From: Methanobacteriota archaeon
GTDB lineage: Archaea > Thermoplasmatota > Poseidoniia > MGIII > CG-Epi1
Assembly: GCA_002687355.1 (NCBI GenBank)
Contig: NYZZ01000041.1
Span: forward strand, 38,156-102,155
DNA length: 64,000 bases
Direction: 5' to 3'
A model generated the notes under the pieces. The model had not been told where the DNA came from. It saw only the letters and a list, made by a program, of their open reading frames with translations, and ran no database searches. A program made the position numbers and the translations under genes. This document shows positions 27,459 through 62,954 of this stretch, in pieces. The stretch's first letter is position 1; each line of letters opens with the position of its first letter.

Positions 27459-28117
27459 TGACTTGCTAACGGCAACAACGAGTTGGCTGCGCGTTCGGTT
27501 GCGTTAGCTACATCATCTAGCCGTTGTGCGACACGATACATATGTGCCGCTGCAAGTGGTGCTTCGTCACCGTGTGAGAAGACATAGGCGGCTGTCGCCG
27601 CTTCCTTCTCGTCAGCCTTGTGCTCGAGGAGGTTAACGCTGGCAATCAGTTGGTGCAATTCTTCCTTCACCTTGGTGGCAAAGCCAGACTCCATCAGTTC
27701 CTGAAGCTTTTCGACCGCCTTTGCATACTCATTCACCGTTGTCTGCACTGCCTGTGCTTGCGTCATCAGCAACTTGCGTGCTTTCGTATCTTCGAACAGC
27801 GGCCGGAAGGAGATTATTTCAGCGACATTCTCGGCATAGTCTGCGATACGGTCCTGTTGCGAGATCATGTCCAAGAAGATTTCCTTGGAGATTGCGAGTC
27901 TCACGCTGCCACGCATCACCTCACGCAGTTCATTCTTGAGATCATCAGCCTCCAACTCGGTCTTTGAGGTGGCCCCAATTGCCTCACTCGCATCACCATC
28001 TTCGCAGGCCACCGCGACGCAGCGCTCCATATGTTCGACTGTCTCGAGCGCCTTGGCAGCGTGACGGTAGTAAGTCTCGAAAACGCTGGGTCCGACGCGA
28101 CTCTCGAAAAACTTCAT
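27455..28117 (-). CDS. DUF47/TIGR00153 PhoU-like phosphate-transport accessory protein
   Basis: 220-aa all-helical protein immediately upstream of, and overlapping, a PiT transporter. This is the classic pit-associated partner. Confidence 0.65.
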   Translation of the reverse strand: MKFFESRVGPSVFETYYRHAAKALETVEHMERCVAVACEDGDASEAIGATSKTELEADDLKNELREVMRGSVRLAISKEIFLDMISQQDRIADYAENVAEIISFRPLFEDTKARKLLMTQAQAVQTTVNEYAKAVEKLQELMESGFATKVKEELHQLIASVNLLEHKADEKEAATAAYVFSHGDEAPLAAAHMYRVAQRLDDVANATERAANSLLPLASH

Positions 28118-29517
28118 TGCGCACCTCCAATTTCAATTTTAGGTCCCGACCTGATTGATTGATAAAGGATCCACATGATGACGCTCAGTATCAGGCTGAC
28201 CGAGACGACGAACCGCGTTTCATCCAGCCCGAAAATCAGGTAAAGCAGGATCGCCCCGATACCGGCTGCCGGGATGCTGGCGACCCAGCTAGCAGCAATC
28301 TTTCCAAAAACGCTGAAATCCACTGATGAGGTTCCTCTTGCCAGCCCGACTCCCACCACAGAGCCCACAAGGGTATGTGTAGTGGAGATGGGCACAGCCA
28401 AGAATGGCATGGAGAATAAGAGAACGGTGGTCGCGGCGGCGAACTGAGCTGCAAACCCGCGAGTTGGAGTAATGTGAGTTATTTTCTCACCAATGGTCTT
28501 CATAACGCGATGGCCCCAGGTAGCTATACCGATGACGATGCCAACACTTCCCAGCAGTACCAACCATAGAGGGACCTCGGCTTCCGGACTTAGTACGCCA
28601 GCTTGGTAAACTTGCCATACTGCCGCCATTGGACCAATGGCGTTGCTACGGTCATTCGCCCCGTGTGCAAAGGCGACATAGCATGCGGTGATTATCTGGA
28701 GCCAGACAAATATGTGTTCGACTCCCGCATAACCTTTCTCCTTGAATTCATGCTTGCGTAGTAGTAAGTAGAGAGCCAGATTAGCTAGTGTTGCCAATAA
28801 CAGTGCTATCTGCAGGCTCTGTATAGGTAGGCATTCTACGACAGCATCCGTGAAACTAAGATTTGCGGCACAATTTTTGGCAGGTAGCCAGGCGGACGGC
28901 AGCAGGAATTTGAGGGCTTTATACTGGAGCGCCAGTCCAAGTACAAAGAATGTCGGGAAAGCCAGGATTGGTGCCATCCAGCGCGATCGTTGGATGGGGT
29001 CCTCAGCTTCCATAATTGTCATGCGTATAACCATGAAAGTCACGTAGGCCAACACTCCACCCAGTAATGGAGAAATAACCCAACTCAAGGCTATCTGGCC
29101 AACTTTCTGAAAATCCACCAACCCTGGGTCGATAAAGAGGCCGAAACCGATTATGCCACCCACAATGCTATGAGTTGTAGAGACAGGCAATCCGTAGCGG
29201 GTGGCAACAGTAATCCAAAGCGCGGCCGCTAGCATGGCAGCGATGAAGCCATATTGTAGCTCGCGAGAAAGACTAGCCATCTCCTCCTCGGAAATAACAA
29301 GCACCCCCTTGCGTACCGTGTCAGTTACGGCATCTCCAGCGAAGAAGGCACCGCAAAATTCGAAAACCGCAGCAATGATTATGGCGTTGCGCAGAGTCAG
29401 CGCACCGCTCCCAACGCTGGTGCCCATAGCGTTGGCGACGTCGTTGGCGCCGATGTTCCACGCCATGTACGCTGCTACCGCAATGGCTAGTAGTATCATC
29501 AATTCGAGTCCGAACAC
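28114..29517 (-). CDS. pit: inorganic phosphate transporter, PiT family
   Basis: 467-aa polytopic membrane protein with two GANDVANAMGTSVGSG / GANDRSNAIGPMA PiT signature repeats. Confidence 0.85.
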   Translation of the reverse strand: MFGLELMILLAIAVAAYMAWNIGANDVANAMGTSVGSGALTLRNAIIIAAVFEFCGAFFAGDAVTDTVRKGVLVISEEEMASLSRELQYGFIAAMLAAALWITVATRYGLPVSTTHSIVGGIIGFGLFIDPGLVDFQKVGQIALSWVISPLLGGVLAYVTFMVIRMTIMEAEDPIQRSRWMAPILAFPTFFVLGLALQYKALKFLLPSAWLPAKNCAANLSFTDAVVECLPIQSLQIALLLATLANLALYLLLRKHEFKEKGYAGVEHIFVWLQIITACYVAFAHGANDRSNAIGPMAAVWQVYQAGVLSPEAEVPLWLVLLGSVGIVIGIATWGHRVMKTIGEKITHITPTRGFAAQFAAATTVLLFSMPFLAVPISTTHTLVGSVVGVGLARGTSSVDFSVFGKIAASWVASIPAAGIGAILLYLIFGLDETRFVVSVSLILSVIMWILYQSIRSGPKIEIGGAQ

Positions 29518-29520
29518 TAA

Positions 29521-29607
29521 CTGGCGCTTACATGGGGGTTAAATAAATATTTTCTATATAAAATATATAATCTATATATTTAATATACCGACCTGTCTGC
29601 TGGGTAG
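29521..29607. promoter_or_regulatory. AT-rich divergent promoter region between pit and phoU-like gene (multiple TATA-like elements)
   Basis: ...aaataaatattttctatataaaatatataatctatatatttaatata... is an extreme AT spike in a ~62% GC background, sited between divergently transcribed genes. Confidence 0.6.
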
Positions 29608-29610
29608 GTG

Positions 29611-30588
29611 ATGGAAAGACGGAAGCTACAGCTGACTGGCGGCTCGACGATTACGGTATCGCTGCCTCGGAAATGGATTGATGAATCCAGGGTTGGGCGG
29701 GGAAACGAGGTGTCACTCATTCCTCAGGCCAATGGCACTTTGGTAATCGACCCACGCGACGAACATTATACGCACAAGAAGCGCCGCAAGCTCGAGGTAG
29801 CTGACGAAGTAGACCAGCAACTGTTCCGCAGGCTCATAGGTATCTACCTGACTGGTACAACTGAACTTTCTGTGGTGTCATCCAATCGCTTCACTGTCCG
29901 CCAGCGACAAACCGTCCGTGATTTCTCAGCTAGCGTTATCGGGATGGAGATAGTAGAGGAGGAGGCAAACCGTATCCTGCTCTATGATGTTACCAGCTCT
30001 GGCGCGTTACCGTTCGACCGGGCAGTTAAGCGACTCTACAAGATAGTGCGAGCGATGTATGATGACGCAGTCTCTATCTTACAGGGCTCTGATATCTTGG
30101 CAGATGAGGTTATCGACCGCGACCGCGAGGCTGACAAGCTCTACTGGTTTATTGACCGGCAGTTCAACATGACTCTAGAGACTCTACAGTTGGCTGATAA
30201 GGTTGCAGGTGGATTGCCTCACGGGCAATTTTTTACACACACCGCTCGCGCACTTGAACGGATTGGTGACCATGCTTGCCGACTTGCCGAAGCGGCGGAG
30301 GAAATGGAGACAGCCGATAGTCGACTGCTTAAACTAGCCGTGGAGGCAGGTGGAATCATGGAGGATGCCATGGCTAGCTTTTCAGCCATCAGGGCGAAGG
30401 CAGCCGTCGACATAGTGGATCGTGGGAAGGCGTACCGGAACCGCTGTCAACATTACTTACAGCAGTATGCCGCCAGAACTCCTGATGAGCCCCTATCGCT
30501 TTTCATGGCACTCGAGTCGATAATCCGTACTGCTATGTACTCGACCGATATCGCTGAGGCAACCATCAATTTTGCGTCGCAGGACTGA
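29611..30588 (+). CDS. phoU: phosphate uptake regulator: AbrB/SpoVT-like swapped-hairpin N-domain + PhoU domains
   Basis: N-terminal MERRKLQLTGGSTITVSLPRKWIDE (AbrB/MazE-like), then two PhoU-like helical repeats. Divergent from pit. The ATG at 29611 is preferred over the upstream GTG. Confidence 0.7.
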   Translation: MERRKLQLTGGSTITVSLPRKWIDESRVGRGNEVSLIPQANGTLVIDPRDEHYTHKKRRKLEVADEVDQQLFRRLIGIYLTGTTELSVVSSNRFTVRQRQTVRDFSASVIGMEIVEEEANRILLYDVTSSGALPFDRAVKRLYKIVRAMYDDAVSILQGSDILADEVIDRDREADKLYWFIDRQFNMTLETLQLADKVAGGLPHGQFFTHTARALERIGDHACRLAEAAEEMETADSRLLKLAVEAGGIMEDAMASFSAIRAKAAVDIVDRGKAYRNRCQHYLQQYAARTPDEPLSLFMALESIIRTAMYSTDIAEATINFASQD

Positions 30589-57580: not shown

Positions 57581-57623
57581 TGGAACCGGGGCATTCGCAA
57601 GCAGTTAATCAGCCTGATGCAGG

Positions 57624-58400
57624 TCAGGTATCGTATCTCTTTGGCAAACCAAGCAGGTCCCCTATTCCTTTGAACGTTCCTGTTACAGATTCTATCAAAG
57701 AAACGCCATATTTTTCCGAAACAAAATGGGCTATGACCAAGTATACCGACGCCCCGATCACTTGTAGTGGAAAACTTTCTGGTATCCCCATAAATCCAAT
57801 CTCACCAAACTCATGTATAGATTTCATCACAAGATAAGCTGCAAATCCAATTAGTAATGAGGTAGACAGATTGAACATGAATCTGATATCAAGATTCTTA
57901 GTGGAAGCAAAGAGTGCATATCCAATTATTACGGCCAACACAATCCCAATGAATAGACCCGTAATGGCATCACCACTTTCCGTTCCTGCACCTATGAAAA
58001 TGACGGTTTCAACACCTTCTCTCCAAACTGAAATGAAGGCTAGTAGGCCAATTCCAAATGCCTCACGCGTTTCAATCGCCTTTTCTGCTTTATTTTCTAG
58101 AACTTCTCTAGTCGCGTGTCCTATAACGTGCAGAATGACAGTGGTAATCAGTACTGCGGCAATTAGATACAGCACACCTTCAAAAAGCTCCTCATTCGTC
58201 TTTGAGAACTCACCAACAATGACCTCGAAGGCTTGCCAAGTTAACACGCTAGCTACAAGCGCGAGTAAGACTCCACCCCAGACCCATTTGGCCATAAATT
58301 TTCTATCAGTTCTATACAGTAGACTAACCAATACACCTATTATAAGTGCAGCTTCGAGAGCTTCTCGAAATCCAATCAGAAAGCCCGCTTCCATGTCCAT
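57624..58400 (-). CDS. FTR1/EfeU-family high-affinity iron permease
   Basis: Two RExxE motifs in TM helices (FREALEAAL, WREGVETVIF). 258 aa. Markedly lower GC than flanking genes. Confidence 0.7.
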   Translation of the reverse strand: MDMEAGFLIGFREALEAALIIGVLVSLLYRTDRKFMAKWVWGGVLLALVASVLTWQAFEVIVGEFSKTNEELFEGVLYLIAAVLITTVILHVIGHATREVLENKAEKAIETREAFGIGLLAFISVWREGVETVIFIGAGTESGDAITGLFIGIVLAVIIGYALFASTKNLDIRFMFNLSTSLLIGFAAYLVMKSIHEFGEIGFMGIPESFPLQVIGASVYLVIAHFVSEKYGVSLIESVTGTFKGIGDLLGLPKRYDT

Positions 58401-58432
58401 TTTTCACATCTCTATTACTTAGGGCAGTCCAA

Positions 58433-58448
58433 TTTAGGTCAACCTAAA
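58433..58448. promoter_or_regulatory. operator-like palindrome 1, TTTAGG-tcaa-CCTAAA
   Basis: A perfect 6-bp inverted repeat with 4-bp spacer in the ftr1/dtxR divergent intergenic region. It resembles DtxR/IdeR box half-sites (TTAGG...CCTAA). Confidence 0.55.
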
Positions 58449-58466
58449 AACCATCTCTATATAAAA

Positions 58467-58482
58467 TTTAGGCCACCCTAAA
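58467..58482. promoter_or_regulatory. operator-like palindrome 2, TTTAGG-ccac-CCTAAA (adjacent TATA-like tatataaaat)
   Basis: A second identical-arm palindrome 34 bp from the first, immediately flanked by an AT-rich TATA-like element. Confidence 0.55.
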
Positions 58483-58513
58483 TCATATTGTATATAATAC
58501 GATAAATGAGTTA

Positions 58514-58529
58514 TTTAGGGTTTCCTAAA
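58514..58529. promoter_or_regulatory. operator-like palindrome 3, TTTAGG-gttt-CCTAAA
   Basis: A third copy 47 bp from the second and ~30 bp upstream of the dtxR ATG. The position is consistent with autoregulation. Confidence 0.55.
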
Positions 58530-58559
58530 TTTTTTATACGACTCCATCTGTAATCTGCC

Positions 58560-59219
58560 ATGGCAGTTATGGATGCTCTATCCGAAAGCGCTGAGATGAT
58601 GATTAAGAATATCCATGATTTATCCTTGGATGGAAAGCGTGTTAGAACCTCCGATTTGGCGCAGAAAACTGATTTGAAGCCAGCATCTGTAACTGAGATG
58701 ATTCAACGTTTAGGCGAGATAGGGCTTGTTGATTATCAGGCCTACCACGGCGTTTTTCTTACTAAACAGGGGCAACATGTAGCGGATGTAATAGGATATA
58801 GATTCAACATACTTCAACGATTTCTAACTGAAATATTGGGTGTGGAAAAAGAAGAAGCCGCCGAGGTTGCTTGTAGAATGGAACACATTCTAACCCGAGA
58901 TGTCGAGACTCGTTTGAGTAATTTCTTAGGTGTTGATTCAGATAACGCTTCAGAGATTATCAATAAGAAAATAAGCGTTGATTCCGAACCCGAACCTGAT
59001 TTCCTTCCATTAACTAATTTTAGAGAAGGCAAAACAGGCAAGGTACGCATAATTCTAGAAAAGAGCGAGCTGACAGAAACTTTGGAACAGGCCGGTCTGT
59101 CTCCAGGTCGTACGATTATAGTCAAGAAGGTTAACGACAAATGCTATGATGTCGAAACGGAGAATGCCTCATTATCTTTGGACAGAGATCTAGCAGCCAA
59201 GATAATAGTCCAGAATTAA
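58560..59219 (+). CDS. DtxR/MntR-family metal-dependent transcriptional repressor with C-terminal FeoA (SH3-like) domain
   Basis: An HTH plus the metal/dimerisation region (…FNILQRFLTEILGVEKEEAAEVACRMEHILTRD…), and a C-terminal FeoA-like GKTGKVRIILEKSE...GRTIIVKK. Divergent from ftr1. Low GC. Confidence 0.8.
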   Translation: MAVMDALSESAEMMIKNIHDLSLDGKRVRTSDLAQKTDLKPASVTEMIQRLGEIGLVDYQAYHGVFLTKQGQHVADVIGYRFNILQRFLTEILGVEKEEAAEVACRMEHILTRDVETRLSNFLGVDSDNASEIINKKISVDSEPEPDFLPLTNFREGKTGKVRIILEKSELTETLEQAGLSPGRTIIVKKVNDKCYDVETENASLSLDRDLAAKIIVQN

Positions 59220-59557
59220 TGGCTTCCAAAGGCGTTCTCTATCTGTTGCTAAGCGGGCCTGCCAACACAGCACACGCGCTGGAATTGCTACGCCTGGCTG
59301 AGTCTCAGGCCGGCTTGGGCGACCACGGTGTTGCGGTGCTGCTGCAGGGTGACGGTGTCGAGTGGCTGGCTGAAGGAGCGAGCAGCGAGGCGCAGGCCGC
59401 ACTACAGGTAGTCTCAGAGCTGGGTGGCGGTGTGTTCGCTTGCTCCCACTCGCTTGCCGAGCGAGGCGTTGTGCCGGCACTGCAGGTACGCGAGGCGCAC
59501 GCGCCACAGCGGATTTCGCAAGCAGTCGCGCACGGCTGGCAGGTTATCTCTGGCTAG
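59219..59557 (+). CDS. DsrE/DsrF/TusD-like (YchN fold) small protein
   Basis: 112 aa with MASKGVLYLLLSGPANTAHALE...VFACSHSLAERG, the pattern and conserved Cys of DsrE-like sulfur-relay proteins. Its start overlaps the dtxR stop (TAATG). Confidence 0.5.
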   Translation: MASKGVLYLLLSGPANTAHALELLRLAESQAGLGDHGVAVLLQGDGVEWLAEGASSEAQAALQVVSELGGGVFACSHSLAERGVVPALQVREAHAPQRISQAVAHGWQVISG

Positions 59558-59964: not shown

Positions 59965-60558
59965 TCAACCGCTGACAACACGTACTTCGTCGCGCTCCAG
60001 CTCACTCCGTAGCTCCGCTGCATCCTCGACCGAGAGCTGGCACCGCAGCGTGAATCCCTCATACATTCCTTCGATACCACACGCCTCAACTGCAATTGGG
60101 CCTTCCGCACCACCCGCCGGCGCTAGCGTGACGTTGACCAGCCCGTCGACCGGGATACCGCCGGTGGTCGCCCGTCCTGCGAATCGGTCCAGCAGCTCCC
60201 CCGCGGTCGGCGTGCCACCGTCTAGTACCAGCACGTCGCCATAGAGCATCAGCCATCGCCCCGGATGGTCAACAGCTGGCCAGGCACGCGAAGCAGGCAG
60301 TGGCGGTCGTTTGTCTTCTGACATGCCCGCCCAGCGTCCACGTTCGCCGCTCCAGCCTTCGTCACTAGCCCCGCCATCACTGGAAAACACGTCGGCGGGC
60401 ACAGCCAGTAGGGCAACAGCTGGCACCCAGCGTTTTCCGTCCCAGATCAGTGCCGAGTGCGACAGCTTGCCGCTGTCCAGGTCGGCGCGCAGCCTAGAGG
60501 CGGGAATCGGCCCGTAGGTTTCGTCGCCGACTTTGACAGGGTATTCGGGCTCGCTCAC
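59965..60558 (-). CDS. hypothetical protein with N-terminal DUF4339-like (GYF-like) domain
   Basis: YGPIPASRLRADLDSGKLSHSALIWDGKRWVPA matches the DUF4339 pattern (G-P-x...G-x-L...W.x.G..W.P). The rest is Gly/Ala-rich with no recognisable motif. Confidence 0.45.
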   Translation of the reverse strand: MSEPEYPVKVGDETYGPIPASRLRADLDSGKLSHSALIWDGKRWVPAVALLAVPADVFSSDGGASDEGWSGERGRWAGMSEDKRPPLPASRAWPAVDHPGRWLMLYGDVLVLDGGTPTAGELLDRFAGRATTGGIPVDGLVNVTLAPAGGAEGPIAVEACGIEGMYEGFTLRCQLSVEDAAELRSELERDEVRVVSG

Positions 60559-62837
60559 GCCTGGTTCGAGTCGTAGCGGTCGCCGTCGGTCCAGATAGTC
60601 TGGTGCCAGTAGGTACTGGTGAAGGTAGCGTCGGTGACGGTGGCGCCATTGAAATTGGCGAACTTGAGGTCCGCACTATACAGGTAGGCATCCGTGAGAT
60701 CCGCCTGATACAGGCTGACATCCGTGAGGTCCGCACTAAACAGGCTGGCATCCGTCAGGGTCGCATAAGCCAGGTAGGCATTCGTGAGGTCTGCATAATC
60801 TAGGTTGGCATCCGTCAGGTTCGCATACTGCAGGTAGGCATCCGTCAGGTCCGCATTCTTCAGGTAGGCATCCGTTAGCTTTGCATTCCTCAGGTCGGCA
60901 TCCGTGAGATCCGCATAGGCCAGATAGGCATCCGTCAGGTCCGCATACCCTAGGTAGGCATCCGTCAGGTCCGCATACTGCAGGTTGGCGCTCGCCAGGT
61001 TCGCATCATCAAGGTCGGCATCCGTCAGGTCCGCACCGTACAGGTTGGCCTCCGTCAGGTTTGCATACTTCAGGTGGGCACCTGTCAGGTGGGCACCCTC
61101 CAGGTCGGCCTCCGCCAAGTTCGCATGCTCCAGGTTGGCCTCCCTCAGGTCCGCATACTTCAGCCAGGCATCCGTCAGGTCCGCATCCTCTAGGTGGGCA
61201 TTTGACAAATCTGCACCCCCCAGGTCGGCCCCTGTCAGGTTGGCTGCCGTTAGGTCAGCTCCCACCAAGTAGGCCTCCGTCAGGTCCGCACCCACCAAGT
61301 AGGCCTCCGTCAGGTCCGCATACTGTATGTCGGCGCCCGTCAGGTTCGCATCCTCCAGGTAGGCATTCTCCAGGTTCGCATACTGCAGCTTCGCATACCT
61401 CAGTTTGGCCTCCGTCAGGTTCGCATCATTCAGGGTGGCGCCCGTCAGGTCCGCATACGCCAGGTAGGCACTCGTCAGGTCCGCATACCATAGGTTGGCA
61501 TTCGTCAGGTCCGCATCCTCCAGGTTGGCGCTCGTCAGGTTCGCCTGATACAGAGTGGCATCCGTCAGGTCCGCATCCACCAGGTAGGTGTTCGTCAACT
61601 TCGCATCCCCCAGCATAGCATTCGTCAGGTCCGCATCCTCCAGGTAGGCATTCGTCAGGTCGGCATTCATCAGCCAGGCCTCCGTCAGGTCCGTATACTG
61701 TAGGTTGGCACCATGCAGGTCCGCCCGATACAGGTCCGTATCCGTGAGGTCCGCATGCTTCAGGTTGGCACCTGTGAGGTCCGCATACTGCATGTCGGCG
61801 CCCGCCAGGTTGGCGGATATCAAGTAAGCTCCTGCCAGGTCCGCCTCATACAGGTTGGCATCCGTCAGGTCCGCACCCGCCAGGTACGCACCCGCCAGAT
61901 CCGCATCCTCCAGGTTGGCATCCGTCAGGTCCGCACAATACAGGATGGCTTCCGTCAGGTCCGCCTCATACAGGGCGGCTCCCGTCAGGTCTGCATACGC
62001 CAAGACGGCTTCCGTCAGGTTCGCCTCATACAGGTTCGCAAACCTCAGTTTAGCATCTATCAGGTCAGTCCACTTCAGGTCCGCACCCGTCAGGTACGCA
62101 CCTGACAGGTCCGCACCATACAGGTTGGCATCCGTCAGGTTCGCGCCACTCAGGTTGGCGTTGCGCAGGTCAATCCACCTCAGGTCCTTCCCACTCAAGT
62201 TCATTCCTCCCATCTCGGCATCCTCGCACTTGCCGTACGGCACCAGATAGCAGGAGTTGACGTTAGCGAGGTCCTCCTCCAGCGCTTGGATATCGGCTGC
62301 GTGCTCCGCTTCGAGCAGCGCGATTTGCGTGGTGTGCTGGTCGAGCATCTGGTTGATATTCGTGATCGCAGTCTCGAGTGTCGTGACCCTCGCATCAAGA
62401 GCTGCGAGCTGTGTCTCGACTGCATTCAGGTCGGCTGTGACCGTGCTGATGTTTGTTGCGGCTGCGTTAAGGTCGTCTGCGCCCGCGCTCAGGTTTGCCT
62501 CCAGTGCCTCTATCAGCAGCAGGTCGGCATCGAGGATATCGATGATGGTATCGAGTTCCTCCTGTAGCTCGGCAATCTGCGCGTTGGTTGTGTTGTCCTC
62601 GCTCTCGTTCACGAGCGCGTCCATACGCGTGTCAAGAGCCTCGATGAGTGCAAGGTCGGTATCAAGGATGTCGGAGATTGCCTTGAGATCCTCGTTCAGC
62701 GTGGCGATGTCCGCGCTGTTCTGGCTGGTACCTTCTTCCAGCTTACTGGTGTCAACCGGTTCAGCTCCGTCCAGACAGCCGATTAGTGCCGTGGTCAGCA
62801 GCATTAGTGCTAACGGCAGGGTTGCGATGCGGGTCAT
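60555..62837 (-). CDS. secreted pentapeptide-repeat lipoprotein: lipobox signal peptide, ~180-aa coiled-coil with internal repeats, ~105 consecutive A(D/N)LT(D/E/G)A(N/Y)L pentapeptide repeats
   Basis: MTRIATLPLALMLLTTALIGC lipobox. Triplicated DL.AI.DILD.DL.LIEAL coiled-coil units. Then ~520 aa of uninterrupted pentapeptide repeats (…ANLTDANLYGADLSGAYLTGADLKW…). The ORF is open to 62891. Confidence 0.8.
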   Translation of the reverse strand: MTRIATLPLALMLLTTALIGCLDGAEPVDTSKLEEGTSQNSADIATLNEDLKAISDILDTDLALIEALDTRMDALVNESEDNTTNAQIAELQEELDTIIDILDADLLLIEALEANLSAGADDLNAAATNISTVTADLNAVETQLAALDARVTTLETAITNINQMLDQHTTQIALLEAEHAADIQALEEDLANVNSCYLVPYGKCEDAEMGGMNLSGKDLRWIDLRNANLSGANLTDANLYGADLSGAYLTGADLKWTDLIDAKLRFANLYEANLTEAVLAYADLTGAALYEADLTEAILYCADLTDANLEDADLAGAYLAGADLTDANLYEADLAGAYLISANLAGADMQYADLTGANLKHADLTDTDLYRADLHGANLQYTDLTEAWLMNADLTNAYLEDADLTNAMLGDAKLTNTYLVDADLTDATLYQANLTSANLEDADLTNANLWYADLTSAYLAYADLTGATLNDANLTEAKLRYAKLQYANLENAYLEDANLTGADIQYADLTEAYLVGADLTEAYLVGADLTAANLTGADLGGADLSNAHLEDADLTDAWLKYADLREANLEHANLAEADLEGAHLTGAHLKYANLTEANLYGADLTDADLDDANLASANLQYADLTDAYLGYADLTDAYLAYADLTDADLRNAKLTDAYLKNADLTDAYLQYANLTDANLDYADLTNAYLAYATLTDASLFSADLTDVSLYQADLTDAYLYSADLKFANFNGATVTDATFTSTYWHQTIWTDGDRYDSNQA
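60630..62190. repeat. intragenic tandem DNA repeats (15-nt unit with 30/60-nt higher-order periodicity) encoding the pentapeptide array
   Basis: Recurring ggcatccgtcaggtccgcata(c/t)... units are visible every 15-60 nt on the plus strand from ~60.65 to 62.2 kb. Confidence 0.8.
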
Positions 62838-62954
62838 ACGTGGGCATTTACGCTGGTCTAAATTAGTATAATCTATAGGGACGACCACCACGCCGGGTTG
62901 GAGTTGTAGCGCTCGCTGTTGTTCCAGACGCTGGGAGCTAGTATGTGCTGAGTT

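Follow-up and report, generated by a model that had tools for sequence, protein, structure and literature searches.

Each monomer of the actinobacterial metalloregulators IdeR and DtxR binds a CCTAA/TTAGG pentamer, and the consensus for a single dimer is TTAGGNNNNCCTAA, a 14-bp core of the form TTAGG-N4-CCTAA (Marcos-Torres et al., NAR 2021, PMC8464063). IdeR/DtxR boxes are 19 bp long and carry two interdigitated dimers that are offset by 5 bp. In archaea, excerpts of the work on Haloferax volcanii TroR (Martinez-Pastor et al., NAR 2023) describe a ChIP-seq motif, TTTAGGC-NNN-CCTAAA, with tandem copies about 30 bp apart, either of which suffices for Fe-dependent repression (PMC10783522). According to the same excerpts, TroR represses iron uptake at TATA/BRE promoters under iron-replete conditions. 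It leaves the promoter of its own gene unbound, which shows that autoregulation is no rule of the family. Archaeoglobus fulgidus MDR1 (Bell et al. 1999, cited in PMC3074139 and PMC4158304) is, as these citing works summarize it, an archaeal DtxR-family repressor that is autoregulated. Its operators lie at the transcription start and block recruitment of RNA polymerase (PMC4158304). The distances among BRE, TATA box and transcription start in archaea have been described, and repression can result from operators located at either the BRE/TATA or the start site (PMC4158304). A literature search on DtxR and Marine Group II returned nothing beyond the preprint on TroR and a metagenomics study on another subject.

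We analysed a 64-kb stretch of DNA from a marine planktonic archaeon, called the window below, in which a 159-bp spacer separates the divergent genes ftr1 and dtxR (Table 1). A scan of the window for the exact pattern TTTAGGNNNNCCTAAA (TTTAGG-N4-CCTAAA) finds three sites, all of them in this spacer. The first-pass annotation had described three such palindromes with perfect arms and variable spacers; their coordinates are exact and shuffling indicates that they are non-random. Dinucleotide shuffles of the 64-kb window contained no site, and only 1 in 200,000 shuffles of the spacer at its local GC of 0.31 yielded even one. If up to two mismatches are allowed, the window has one further site, at 62847, which is within chance expectation. 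A degenerate fourth operator, O0, had been overlooked. It abuts site 1 in a 15-bp register from the site 1 core, and a perfect TTAGG-N4-CCTAA is found at its position in three relatives (L006, L018 and L082). The offsets between dimer sites in the window are 15, 34 and 47 bp. Among the orthologous loci the commonest spacing is the 15-bp abutting pair (25 cases); spacings of 33–36 bp occur in 29 cases.

Table 1. Features of the ftr1–dtxR locus (positions within the window)
Feature	Position	Strand	Details
Low-GC block	57600-59220		~0.41 GC within ~0.60 GC genome
ftr1, FTR1/EfeU-family iron permease, 258 aa	57624-58400	-	GC3 0.37
Predicted ftr1 5′ leader, ~36 nt	58401-58436	-	putative SD-like GAGATGTGA just before ATG
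O0, degenerate fourth operator	58419-58432		TTAGGgcagTCCAA; 2 mismatches, right arm
Site 1	58433-58448		TTTAGGtcaaCCTAAA; spacer TCAA; overlaps predicted ftr1 transcription start; kept in orthologous loci
ftr1-promoter TATA box	58458-58466	- (predicted)	minus strand reads CCTAAA-TTTTATATA-G
Site 2	58467-58482		TTTAGGccacCCTAAA; spacer CCAC; left arm on BRE position of ftr1 promoter
Extra module of "window-type" spacers	58488-58513		TATA-like TATATAATA (58491-58499) and conserved block CGATAAATGAGTTA
Site 3	58514-58529		TTTAGGgtttCCTAAA; spacer GTTT; right arm on BRE position of dtxR promoter
dtxR-promoter TATA box	58530-58538	+	TTTTTTATA; -28/-27 from ATG in ~28/32 loci
dtxR, three-domain DtxR/IdeR-family metalloregulator, 219 aa	58560-59219	+	GC3 0.38
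DsrE-like gene (dsrE), 112 aa	59219-59557	+	Pfam DsrE; native high GC

The sites were compared across 32 orthologous loci of Marine Group III-type archaea, 306 kb in total. Of the TTAGG-N4-CCTAA cores in this set, 92 are found in the 170 bp before dtxR and only four occur elsewhere in the 306 kb, as two pairs that each precede a gene for a transferrin-like (iron-)binding protein; shuffles lead us to expect 0.44 cores in total. The motif co-occurs with dtxR in 32/32 loci. There are 41 distinct spacers among 81 unique sites, while the arms are invariant, a pattern that we read as the mark of an operator bound by protein. The invariant columns of the locus alignment are the operator arms and both TATA boxes, and the most constant feature of all loci is an operator directly abutting the ftr1-side TATA box. 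Most orthologs have site 3 at −46 relative to the ATG. In a "−60" group, the third operator does not abut the dtxR TATA box but is 14 bp away from it.

Genes linked to the core in the orthologous loci are all iron-uptake genes. Among relatives they encode FTR1/EfeU, Fea1, FecCD with Peripla_BP_2, and a transferrin-like/phosphonate-binding lipoprotein with an ABC transporter and an HmuY-like protein. Distant relatives have dtxR-feoB operons with the same core. In MGII-type loci a ferredoxin gene is also preceded by the operator–TATA geometry. In the window, the ftr1 product has the FTR1 domain (Pfam FTR1, 1.7e-32) and its translation contains both REXXE motifs (REALE and REGVE); the NCBIfam EfeU model scores 139.6 bits, which is under the equivalog cutoff. 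The sites are therefore non-random, conserved in about 35 loci, linked to iron uptake only and identical to experimentally defined IdeR/TroR sites.

The three exact sites each consist of two inverted CCTAA pentamers with a 4-bp gap, so that the arms are indeed DtxR/IdeR half-sites, as had been proposed. The locus shares with IdeR/DtxR the pentamer, the single-dimer spacing, the Met/Cys/Glu/His ligands and the three domains of the regulator (PMC8464063). It differs in having separate dimer sites and archaeal promoters. The classical 19-bp iron box of four overlapping pentamers, TTAGGTTAGSCTAACCTAA, is absent from 58401-58559, where the best match has 6 mismatches. The resemblance to TroR, which we judge on motif and geometry, extends to the whole 16-bp motif, to a similar separation of copies (about 30 bp for TroR versus 34 here) and to the archaeal promoter type. 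However, TroR is described in the excerpts cited above without an SH3-like domain, which the regulator here has, and the sites here occupy the regulator's own promoter. The 15-bp abutting pairs and the placement of arms on the BREs of mirrored promoters do not feature in those excerpts. MDR1, as the citing works present it, offers a precedent for site 1 and O0 lying over the ftr1 start. However, its motif is GTT-N8,9-AAC (PMC3074139), which has no occurrence in 58401-58559, and it heads an ABC-transporter operon rather than belonging to a divergent pair.

The two flanking genes were named correctly in the first-pass annotation, as an FTR1 permease and a DtxR-FeoA repressor, according to Pfam. 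The dtxR product has an N-terminal winged-helix domain (Fe_dep_repress, PF01325, 1.1e-15, residues 7-65), a dimerisation and metal-binding domain (Fe_dep_repr_C, PF02742, 1e-14, residues 68-124) and a C-terminal SH3-like domain (FeoA, 1.3e-09, residues 150-218). Its PDB matches to IdeR, DtxR and MntR range from 1e-9 to 1e-16. In an ungapped alignment, M13/C105/E108/H109 correspond to the primary metal site of IdeR, M10/C102/E105/H106, and these residues are invariant in 19 homologs. The ancillary metal site of DtxR/IdeR, which we take to be His79/Glu83/His98, is not kept in the IdeR alignment, where F82/Q86/A101 are found instead. Similarly, the base-contacting Gln43 of IdeR aligns with Glu46. 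Given that neither the ancillary ligands nor Gln43 are conserved, details of recognition may differ. All in all, the palindromes are real and strongly conserved sites, and the neighbouring DtxR-type repressor is their likely ligand.

Two TATA-like elements had been noted in the spacer. The one at 58458-58466 is strongly conserved, as CTATATAWA is invariant in 33/33 loci. The other, at 58491-58499, is conserved only loosely and reads CATATAAC, CATATCAC or GTATCAC in relatives. This pair was incomplete, since the invariant dtxR-side element TTTTTTATA had been missed. The looser element belongs to an extra module present only in the window and in seven relatives (L001, L006, L010, L013, L016, L018 and L082; the window is WIN in this series). 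Within the module, CGATAGATTGGTTGT is the conserved portion and the TATA-like portion is variable; the module could be a second promoter or the site of another factor.

The combination of CCTAAA and TATA box is mirrored on the two strands: sites 2 and 3 abut the mirror-image TATA boxes CCTAAATTTTATATA and CCTAAATTTTTTATA, at the positions where a BRE is expected. From archaeal promoter geometry we infer the promoter directions and the transcription starts. The centre of the ftr1-side TATA box is at 58462, and a distance of about 26 bp predicts an ftr1 start near 58436. A GATGTGA/GGTGA sequence before the ATG of the divergent gene is conserved in relatives. As the dtxR TATA box is centred about 26 bp ahead of the ATG, the dtxR mRNA is predicted to be leaderless. 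The ATG of dsrE overlaps the dtxR stop codon (TAATG), so the two genes are probably co-transcribed from the same promoter, and they are neighbours in nearly every orthologous locus. AT boxes 21–34 bp before the start codon are also seen at other lone genes of the window.

We propose, with a probability of roughly 80%, that the spacer consists of back-to-back archaeal promoters carrying several single-dimer operators to which the adjacent DtxR/IdeR-type repressor binds. A metal-loaded dimer would sit on each TTAGG-N4-CCTAA core, its two monomers taking one pentamer each. With sufficient Fe2+, site 2 would be occupied by a dimer that covers the BRE of the ftr1 promoter and abuts its TATA box. 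A dimer on site 1 and, weakly, one on O0 would lie over the ftr1 start and the early leader. Together, these dimers would silence the permease gene. Occupancy of site 3 would mask the BRE of the rightward promoter, from which the probably leaderless dtxR-dsrE transcript is made, so that dtxR would be negatively autoregulated. Under iron scarcity the repressor, now in its apo form, would leave and both promoters would fire. The first-pass annotation had predicted Fe/Mn-dependent repression of ftr1 as well as autoregulation of dtxR. The positions of the operators relative to the conserved TATA boxes and other promoter elements favour repression of ftr1 by iron and autoregulation of dtxR, both of which we regard as likely on sequence grounds.

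The identity of the binder, the acting metal and the sign of regulation can each be read differently. If the regulator were a manganese sensor of the MntR/SirR type, the same sites would mediate Mn- rather than Fe-dependent control. The MntR of Bacillus subtilis and Thermococcales belongs to the same family, the best NCBIfam match of the dtxR product is the Thermococcales-type MntR model, relatives carry the JGI name "DtxR family Mn-dependent transcriptional regulator" and the recognition helix PASVTEMIQRL resembles PSSVTKMVQKL of B. subtilis MntR. However, the MntR model scores 103 bits against a cutoff of 350, and all NCBIfam scores of the protein are far below equivalog cutoffs. In a BLASTP alignment to MntR, only 2/6 residues of the binuclear site (Asp8/Glu11/His77/Glu99/Glu102/His103) are kept, the counterparts being M13/K16/F82/C105/E108/H109. 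The changes of D8/E11/H77/E99 to M13/K16/F82/C105 thus include the Fe-type Met/Cys pair of DtxR/IdeR. In addition, the linked transporters are all iron systems, with NRAMP and MntABC absent among the linked genes, and the identical motif serves the iron-responsive TroR. On ligands and regulon content we reject an MntR identity, consider manganese control improbable and favour Fe over Mn as the effector. We think it more improbable still that another DtxR-family paralogue, for example a two-domain TroR-like protein, binds the sites and that the adjacent dtxR is just a target. MGII-type loci do have two-domain DtxR homologs with the same core 5 kb away before the ferredoxin gene, and in haloarchaeal cascades TroR represses idr. 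However, this reading fits poorly with the joint presence of motif and gene in every orthologous locus, with the occurrence of the core immediately before the genes of distant homologs that have the same PASVTEMIQ helix, and with the fact that no second paralogue was seen within the 64-kb window.

Regarding the sign of regulation, site 3 and its TATA box might instead serve positive autoregulation. Fe-DtxR would then recruit TFB/TBP at dtxR-dsrE, and only ftr1 would be repressed. TrmBL1, Tgr and Ptr2 are cases of activation from operators upstream of the BRE/TATA (PMC4158304), and TroR activates dpsA according to excerpts of its description (PMC10783522). The same geometry precedes the ferredoxin gene, where Fe-dependent repression would be odd, and in some loci the operator is 14 bp upstream of the dtxR TATA box. 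However, this geometry is also found at the iron-uptake promoter, which must be iron-repressed. Moreover, in the window and most loci the AAA of the operator arm falls on the BRE adenines (−34/−33), so a bound dimer would compete with TFB. We therefore consider activation of dtxR unlikely and retain repression at both promoters. As to readings without a protein, each site can fold into a 5-bp stem with a tetraloop, and the spacer is AT-rich. However, the stems are of low stability (−3.2 to −4.0 kcal/mol), the arms stay invariant over about 35 loci instead of covarying, and two of the sites, 2 and 3, are upstream of the predicted starts. Rfam contains no corresponding family, its sole match being a sub-threshold sR30 inside the dtxR coding sequence. 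Chance or AT-richness is rejected by the shuffles of window, loci and spacer. We thus give RNA hairpins, a repeat element or chance next to no credence.

The ftr1-dtxR block had also been described as a low-GC, horizontally acquired iron-uptake cassette. Its low GC is confirmed by comparison with its neighbours: ftr1 and dtxR have a GC of about 0.41–0.42 and a GC3 of 0.37–0.38, versus a GC3 of 0.59–0.74 for adjacent genes, and the breakpoints at about 57600 and 59220 are sharp. Acquisition from low-GC relatives is likewise upheld. The ftr1 gene is 93.5% identical at the nucleotide level to the allele of a low-GC genome (L010), and mutL is about 71% identical. In the sister contigs L002, L081 and L083, ftr1 is the native high-GC version (GC3 0.64). 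The insertion of a foreign cassette, however, does not stand. The order mutL-[ftr1]-dtxR-dsrE-trx is conserved across the clade, with discordant sequence identities, and dtxR is at its conserved syntenic position, indicating allelic replacement in situ. The data support an origin of the low-GC ftr1 allele and spacer by recombination at the mutL/dsrE position, the partner being a low-GC Marine Group III-type relative. The replacement is clearly recent for ftr1 and may be so for dtxR.

An assembly chimera is rejected as the cause of the GC step. Similar steps occur in five other contigs (L001, L002, L003, L081 and L083), in which a low-GC dtxR is beside a high-GC dsrE, or beside a high-GC ftr1 and upstream gene, and the flanks share too little identity with the low-GC genomes to be mis-joined. 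Carriage by a mobile element is not borne out, as the flanks in the window are ordinary (mutL, DUF531, dsrE-like and thioredoxin). A second copy of the cassette (L012) is among ordinary genes.

In most loci the canonical layout is a single operator sandwiched between the two TATA boxes, which in the window would be duplicated into sites 2 and 3. A more speculative reading, which we advance as doubtful, is that the arms of one operator are the BREs of both promoters and that the dtxR-operator unit is a recombination anchor. A single operator between back-to-back TATA boxes would then allow one dimer to compete with TFB twice. In addition, Marine Group III-type lineages that differ by more than 20% GC would swap iron-uptake modules at one position, namely FTR1 alleles, transferrin-like ABC operons, Fea1 and FecCD.

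Because this operator type is already known from bacterial IdeR and haloarchaeal TroR, the locus is a clear but ordinary case, and it does not overturn current understanding. Nonetheless, Marine Group II/III archaea are abundant, uncultured inhabitants of iron-poor seawater whose gene regulation is essentially uncharacterised, and the locus provides a ready-made, predicted regulator–operator pair of high confidence. The search pattern TTAGG-N4-CCTAA beside a TATA box could define iron regulons in MAGs, and iron stress could be read from metatranscriptomes via ftr1, the transferrin-like ABC operon, fea1 and dtxR-dsrE. The haplotypes document recent exchange of an iron-uptake gene between lineages of very different GC, and the single-dimer IdeR/TroR operator is extended to another archaeal class, where it is laid onto the BRE/TATA elements.

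The window contains exactly three matches to TTTAGGNNNNCCTAAA, the palindromes reported in the first-pass annotation, and all fall between the divergent ftr1 and dtxR genes (see table). Dinucleotide-preserving shuffles of the whole 64 kb yielded no match to TTTAGGNNNNCCTAAA, and one in 200,000 shuffles at the spacer's own composition (159 bp, GC 0.31) had a single site. When two mismatches were tolerated, the window scan gave one further, unrelated match, which is within chance expectation. This match (62847-62862) is inside the 5′ end of a pentapeptide-repeat gene and is probably accidental. The 778-aa protein encoded at 60555-62891 (−) consists almost wholly of A(D/N)LxG/Y-type pentapeptide repeats, preceded by an N-terminal signal and a coiled-coil-like region. 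The flanking genes encode, as had been proposed, an FTR1/EfeU-family permease and a DtxR-family protein with a FeoA/SH3-like domain. To the two TATA-like elements noticed earlier must be added an invariant box, TTTTTTATA, that was overlooked.

Features of the ftr1-dtxR region and of MGII-type ferredoxin loci (window positions unless a locus is named)
Feature	Position	Strand	Details
Site 1	58433-58448		exact TTTAGGNNNNCCTAAA; spacer TCAA
Site 2	58467-58482		exact TTTAGGNNNNCCTAAA; spacer CCAC
Site 3	58514-58529		exact TTTAGGNNNNCCTAAA; spacer GTTT
O0, degenerate fourth site TTAGGgcagTCCAA	58419-58432		adjoins site 1 in 15-bp register; comparison with relatives
Invariant TATA box TTTTTTATA	58530-58538		comparison with relatives
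ftr1	57624-58400	−	FTR1/EfeU-family permease; both REXXE motifs seen in translation
dtxR	58560-59219	+	219-aa regulator; Fe_dep_repress, Fe_dep_repr_C and FeoA/SH3-like domains
Predicted leftward promoter		−	BRE is left arm of site 2
Predicted leftward start	~58436	−	within site 1
Predicted leftward leader		−	~36 nt; holds O0 and conserved SD-like GAGATGTGA
MGII-type ferredoxin-gene site, locus L064	10980-10993
MGII-type ferredoxin-gene site, locus L072	11007-11020
MGII-type ferredoxin-gene site, locus L080	11009-11022

The suggestion that the arms are DtxR/IdeR half-sites is well founded. Crystallography and EMSA assigned one CCTAA pentamer to each IdeR monomer; in the 19-bp box, repeats 1 and 3 are taken by one dimer, a half site binds a single dimer, and a 14-bp consensus, TTAGGNNNNCCTAA, was proposed instead (Marcos-Torres et al., PMC8464063). 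This consensus is exactly the core found in the window. For TroR, a DtxR-family protein of the archaeon Haloferax volcanii, ChIP-seq gave the motif TTTAGGC-NNN-CCTAAA, often present in several copies at iron-uptake promoters; the siderophore operon has two copies ~30 bp apart, each sufficient for iron-dependent repression (PMC10783522). The window sites are thus a model example of an operator that has been defined by experiment. Against the two-dimer box of 19 bp, the classical form, the best match here has 6 mismatches, and the MDR1 motif GTT-N8,9-AAC is absent. We consider it very probable (roughly 0.9) that the sites are DtxR-family operators, and almost as probable that the protein encoded beside them binds them.

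Both sequence and function place the array among TroR/IdeR-type single-dimer operators served by a DtxR-family regulator, an operator kind that is already known; the host clade is archaeal, marine and uncultured. The locus differs from its closest known systems in the SH3-like domain of the regulator, in abutting 15-bp pairs in place of interdigitated dimers, in the placing of operator arms on the BREs of a mirrored promoter pair and in ancillary metal ligands that are not conserved. Moreover, TroR is not autoregulated, whereas the sites here stand in the regulator's own promoter.

Each of the 32 full orthologous loci compared (306 kb) has TTAGG-N4-CCTAA cores immediately before dtxR: two to four in 30 loci and one in L021 and L025. 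Cores in the 170 bp upstream of dtxR number 92, against only 4 at all other places (0.44 expected in total from shuffles). The four outlying cores form two pairs, in L021 and L025, each directly upstream of a transferrin-like lipoprotein gene. The 81 unique sites have 41 different spacers, whose positions show mild preferences only, and the flanks lengthen the motif to T-TTAGG...CCTAA-A. In MAFFT alignments of both architectural types of the intergenic spacer, the invariant parts are the operator arms, the TTTTTTATA box, a CTATATATA(G/A)T box and a run of A following the second operator; variation is free in the operator spacers and in the ~21 nt ahead of the dtxR ATG. Palindromes could also be read as RNA hairpins, but these would not give invariant arms with free spacers, and the stems are weak (−3.2 to −4.0 kcal/mol). 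No Rfam family matches the palindromes. Judged from the alignments, invariant arms and free spacers without compensatory changes are the pattern of a dimeric DNA-binding protein. Inside the dtxR coding sequence, a sub-threshold Rfam match to the C/D-box sRNA sR30 (58569-58624, +; 21 bits vs. a gathering score of 38) is most likely noise.

The signal metal had been left as iron or manganese. Genes adjoining the motif across genomes have iron-uptake functions without exception: FTR1; a transferrin-like/phosphonate-binding lipoprotein with ABC ATPase, permease and HmuY-like protein; a Fea1 "low-iron-inducible" lipoprotein; a FecCD/Peripla_BP_2 system; and, in distant relatives with the same PASVTEMIQ recognition helix, dtxR-feoB operons. 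In an ungapped alignment, M13, C105, E108 and H109 of the regulator, invariant among 19 homologs, map onto the IdeR primary site (M10, C102, E105 and H106), and Glu46 is opposite IdeR Gln43. The ancillary-site residues H79, E83 and H98 are replaced by F82, Q86 and A101. The best NCBIfam match is an MntR model, which could suggest manganese, but the score is far below that model's cutoff. Relative to B. subtilis MntR, only two of six Mn ligands are kept, and the distinguishing positions D8 and E99 are Met and Cys. The iron-uptake linkage, Fe-type ligands and low MntR score therefore favour Fe2+ as co-repressor, and iron is the likely signal.

In archaea, the TATA box is at −26/−27 and the BRE adenines at −34/−33, and operators that cover the BRE/TATA (TrmB) or the start site (MDR1, Phr, TrmBL1) act as repressing elements by keeping TFB or RNA polymerase from being recruited (PMC4158304). 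Site 3 runs directly into the TATA box as CCTAAA-TTTTTTATA (58524-58538, +), whose centre is ~26 bp before the dtxR ATG, a distance fixed in ~28 of the 32 loci. Given the archaeal spacing, a leaderless dtxR mRNA is probable, with the BRE probably under the right arm of site 3. AT boxes also precede the start codons of several other lone genes in the window, at distances of 21-34 bp. A mirror image on the − strand, CCTAAA-TTTTATATA (58472 down to 58458), predicts the leftward promoter. Most relatives have a single operator flanked by both TATA boxes, and two abutting operators in 15-bp register cover the divergent gene's start; in window-type loci, an additional 47-bp module splits the single operator's roles into sites 2 and 3. 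Operators at the BRE/TATA and start would block TFB or RNA polymerase recruitment at the ftr1 promoter. Repression of ftr1 is accordingly a reasonable expectation from this layout; negative autoregulation of dtxR is only slightly favoured. Window-type spacers also conserve a block, CGTATATATAACGATAGATTGGTTGT (window 58488-58513; L006, L010, L013, L016, L018, L082), partly palindromic in L013, L016 and L018 (ATCGT-N7-ACGAT), that could be a second promoter or another factor's site.

A DsrE-like gene begins within the dtxR stop codon (TAATG, 59216-59221) and comes directly after dtxR in nearly all relatives. This gene is therefore probably co-regulated, and a DsrE/TusD-like sulfur-relay protein appears to belong to the iron regulon. 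In MGII-type loci, a conserved TTAGG-N4-CCTAA (spacer TTAA or CTAG) adjoins a TTTATATA box immediately before a 7Fe-type ferredoxin gene, with the same operator-TATA geometry as in the window. Since a ferredoxin would be a strange target for repression by iron, this site may be activating, like TroR at dpsA.

Regulator homologs come almost entirely from marine metagenomes and "Euryarchaeota archaeon" MAGs. Among species-representative genomes, the scan gave 33 loci with 60-98% identical regulators, labelled Marine Group III (CG-Bathy1, CG-Epi1), Poseidoniia and some Thalassarchaeaceae. The order mutL-[ftr1]-dtxR-dsrE-trx-hyp is common to the window and low-GC MGIII genomes, which places the host in that clade or close to it. 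Distant homologs occur in Poseidoniales, Methanomassiliicoccales, Methanosarcinales, Asgard archaea and one Dehalococcoidales bacterium. The dtxR-feoB operons of a Methanomassiliicoccales archaeon (L035), an uncultured archaeon (L040) and a Dehalococcoidales bacterium (L050) have one or two TTAGG-N4-CCTAA sites in front and an identical recognition helix, PASVTEMIQKL; this pairing of helix and operator is thus widely distributed and crosses domains.

The low GC of the ftr1-dtxR block, earlier attributed to a horizontally acquired cassette, is evident in GC3 (0.37-0.38 vs. 0.59-0.74 in neighbours), with steps at gene borders. Identities to low-GC genomes are discordant: 83-95% for FTR1 and 63-83% for DtxR, against 56-62% for MutL, ~50% for DsrE and ~38% for hyp197 (protein). 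The nucleotide identity of ftr1 is 93.5% with L010 and 90.7% with MGIII CG-Bathy1; that of mutL with low-GC genomes is ~70%, over part of its length only. L001 belongs to the window's lineage (95-98% nucleotide identity). Sister contigs of this high-GC lineage have 93-95% identical flanks and other states at the ftr1 position: L002, L081 and L083 carry a native-looking ftr1 (GC3 0.64, 62% amino acid identity to the window's) with a canonical three-site spacer, and in L003 a low-GC transferrin-like ABC operon replaces ftr1. Low-GC dtxR follows in all three states of window 57600-58560. An assembly chimera could mimic such mosaics, but the junctions recur in these five other contigs. Foreign origin thus holds for ftr1 and the spacer, but as replacement, not insertion, because the position is syntenic across the clade; the identities and sister contigs indicate that it is recent in the window/L001 haplotype. 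Because dtxR is low-GC in every haplotype (GC3 0.38-0.40) and, at 88% nucleotide identity between haplotypes, more divergent than the flanks, its introgression seems older or repeated. A second ftr1-dtxR cassette with three operators occupies a non-syntenic place on another contig (L012, 3698-5235) of the MGIII CG-Bathy1 MAG that holds the syntenic locus L004; it lacks dsrE and lies among genes for peptidases, a methyltransferase, RadA and aIF5B, with no mobile-element genes seen nearby. Elsewhere in the window, a divergent intergenic region (29517-29607) between ORFs at 28113-29517 (−) and 29607-30588 (+) is strikingly AT-rich for a 60% GC genome, ~50 bp of it reading TATATTAAATATATAGATTATATATTTTATATAGAAAATATTTATTTAA.

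To judge from these sequences, the 57600-58560 position acts like a small, flexible island that houses iron-uptake modules. The promoter design is neat, yet no surprise to the specialist; for archaea that are abundant but uncultured, the locus offers a useful way into the study of iron regulation.
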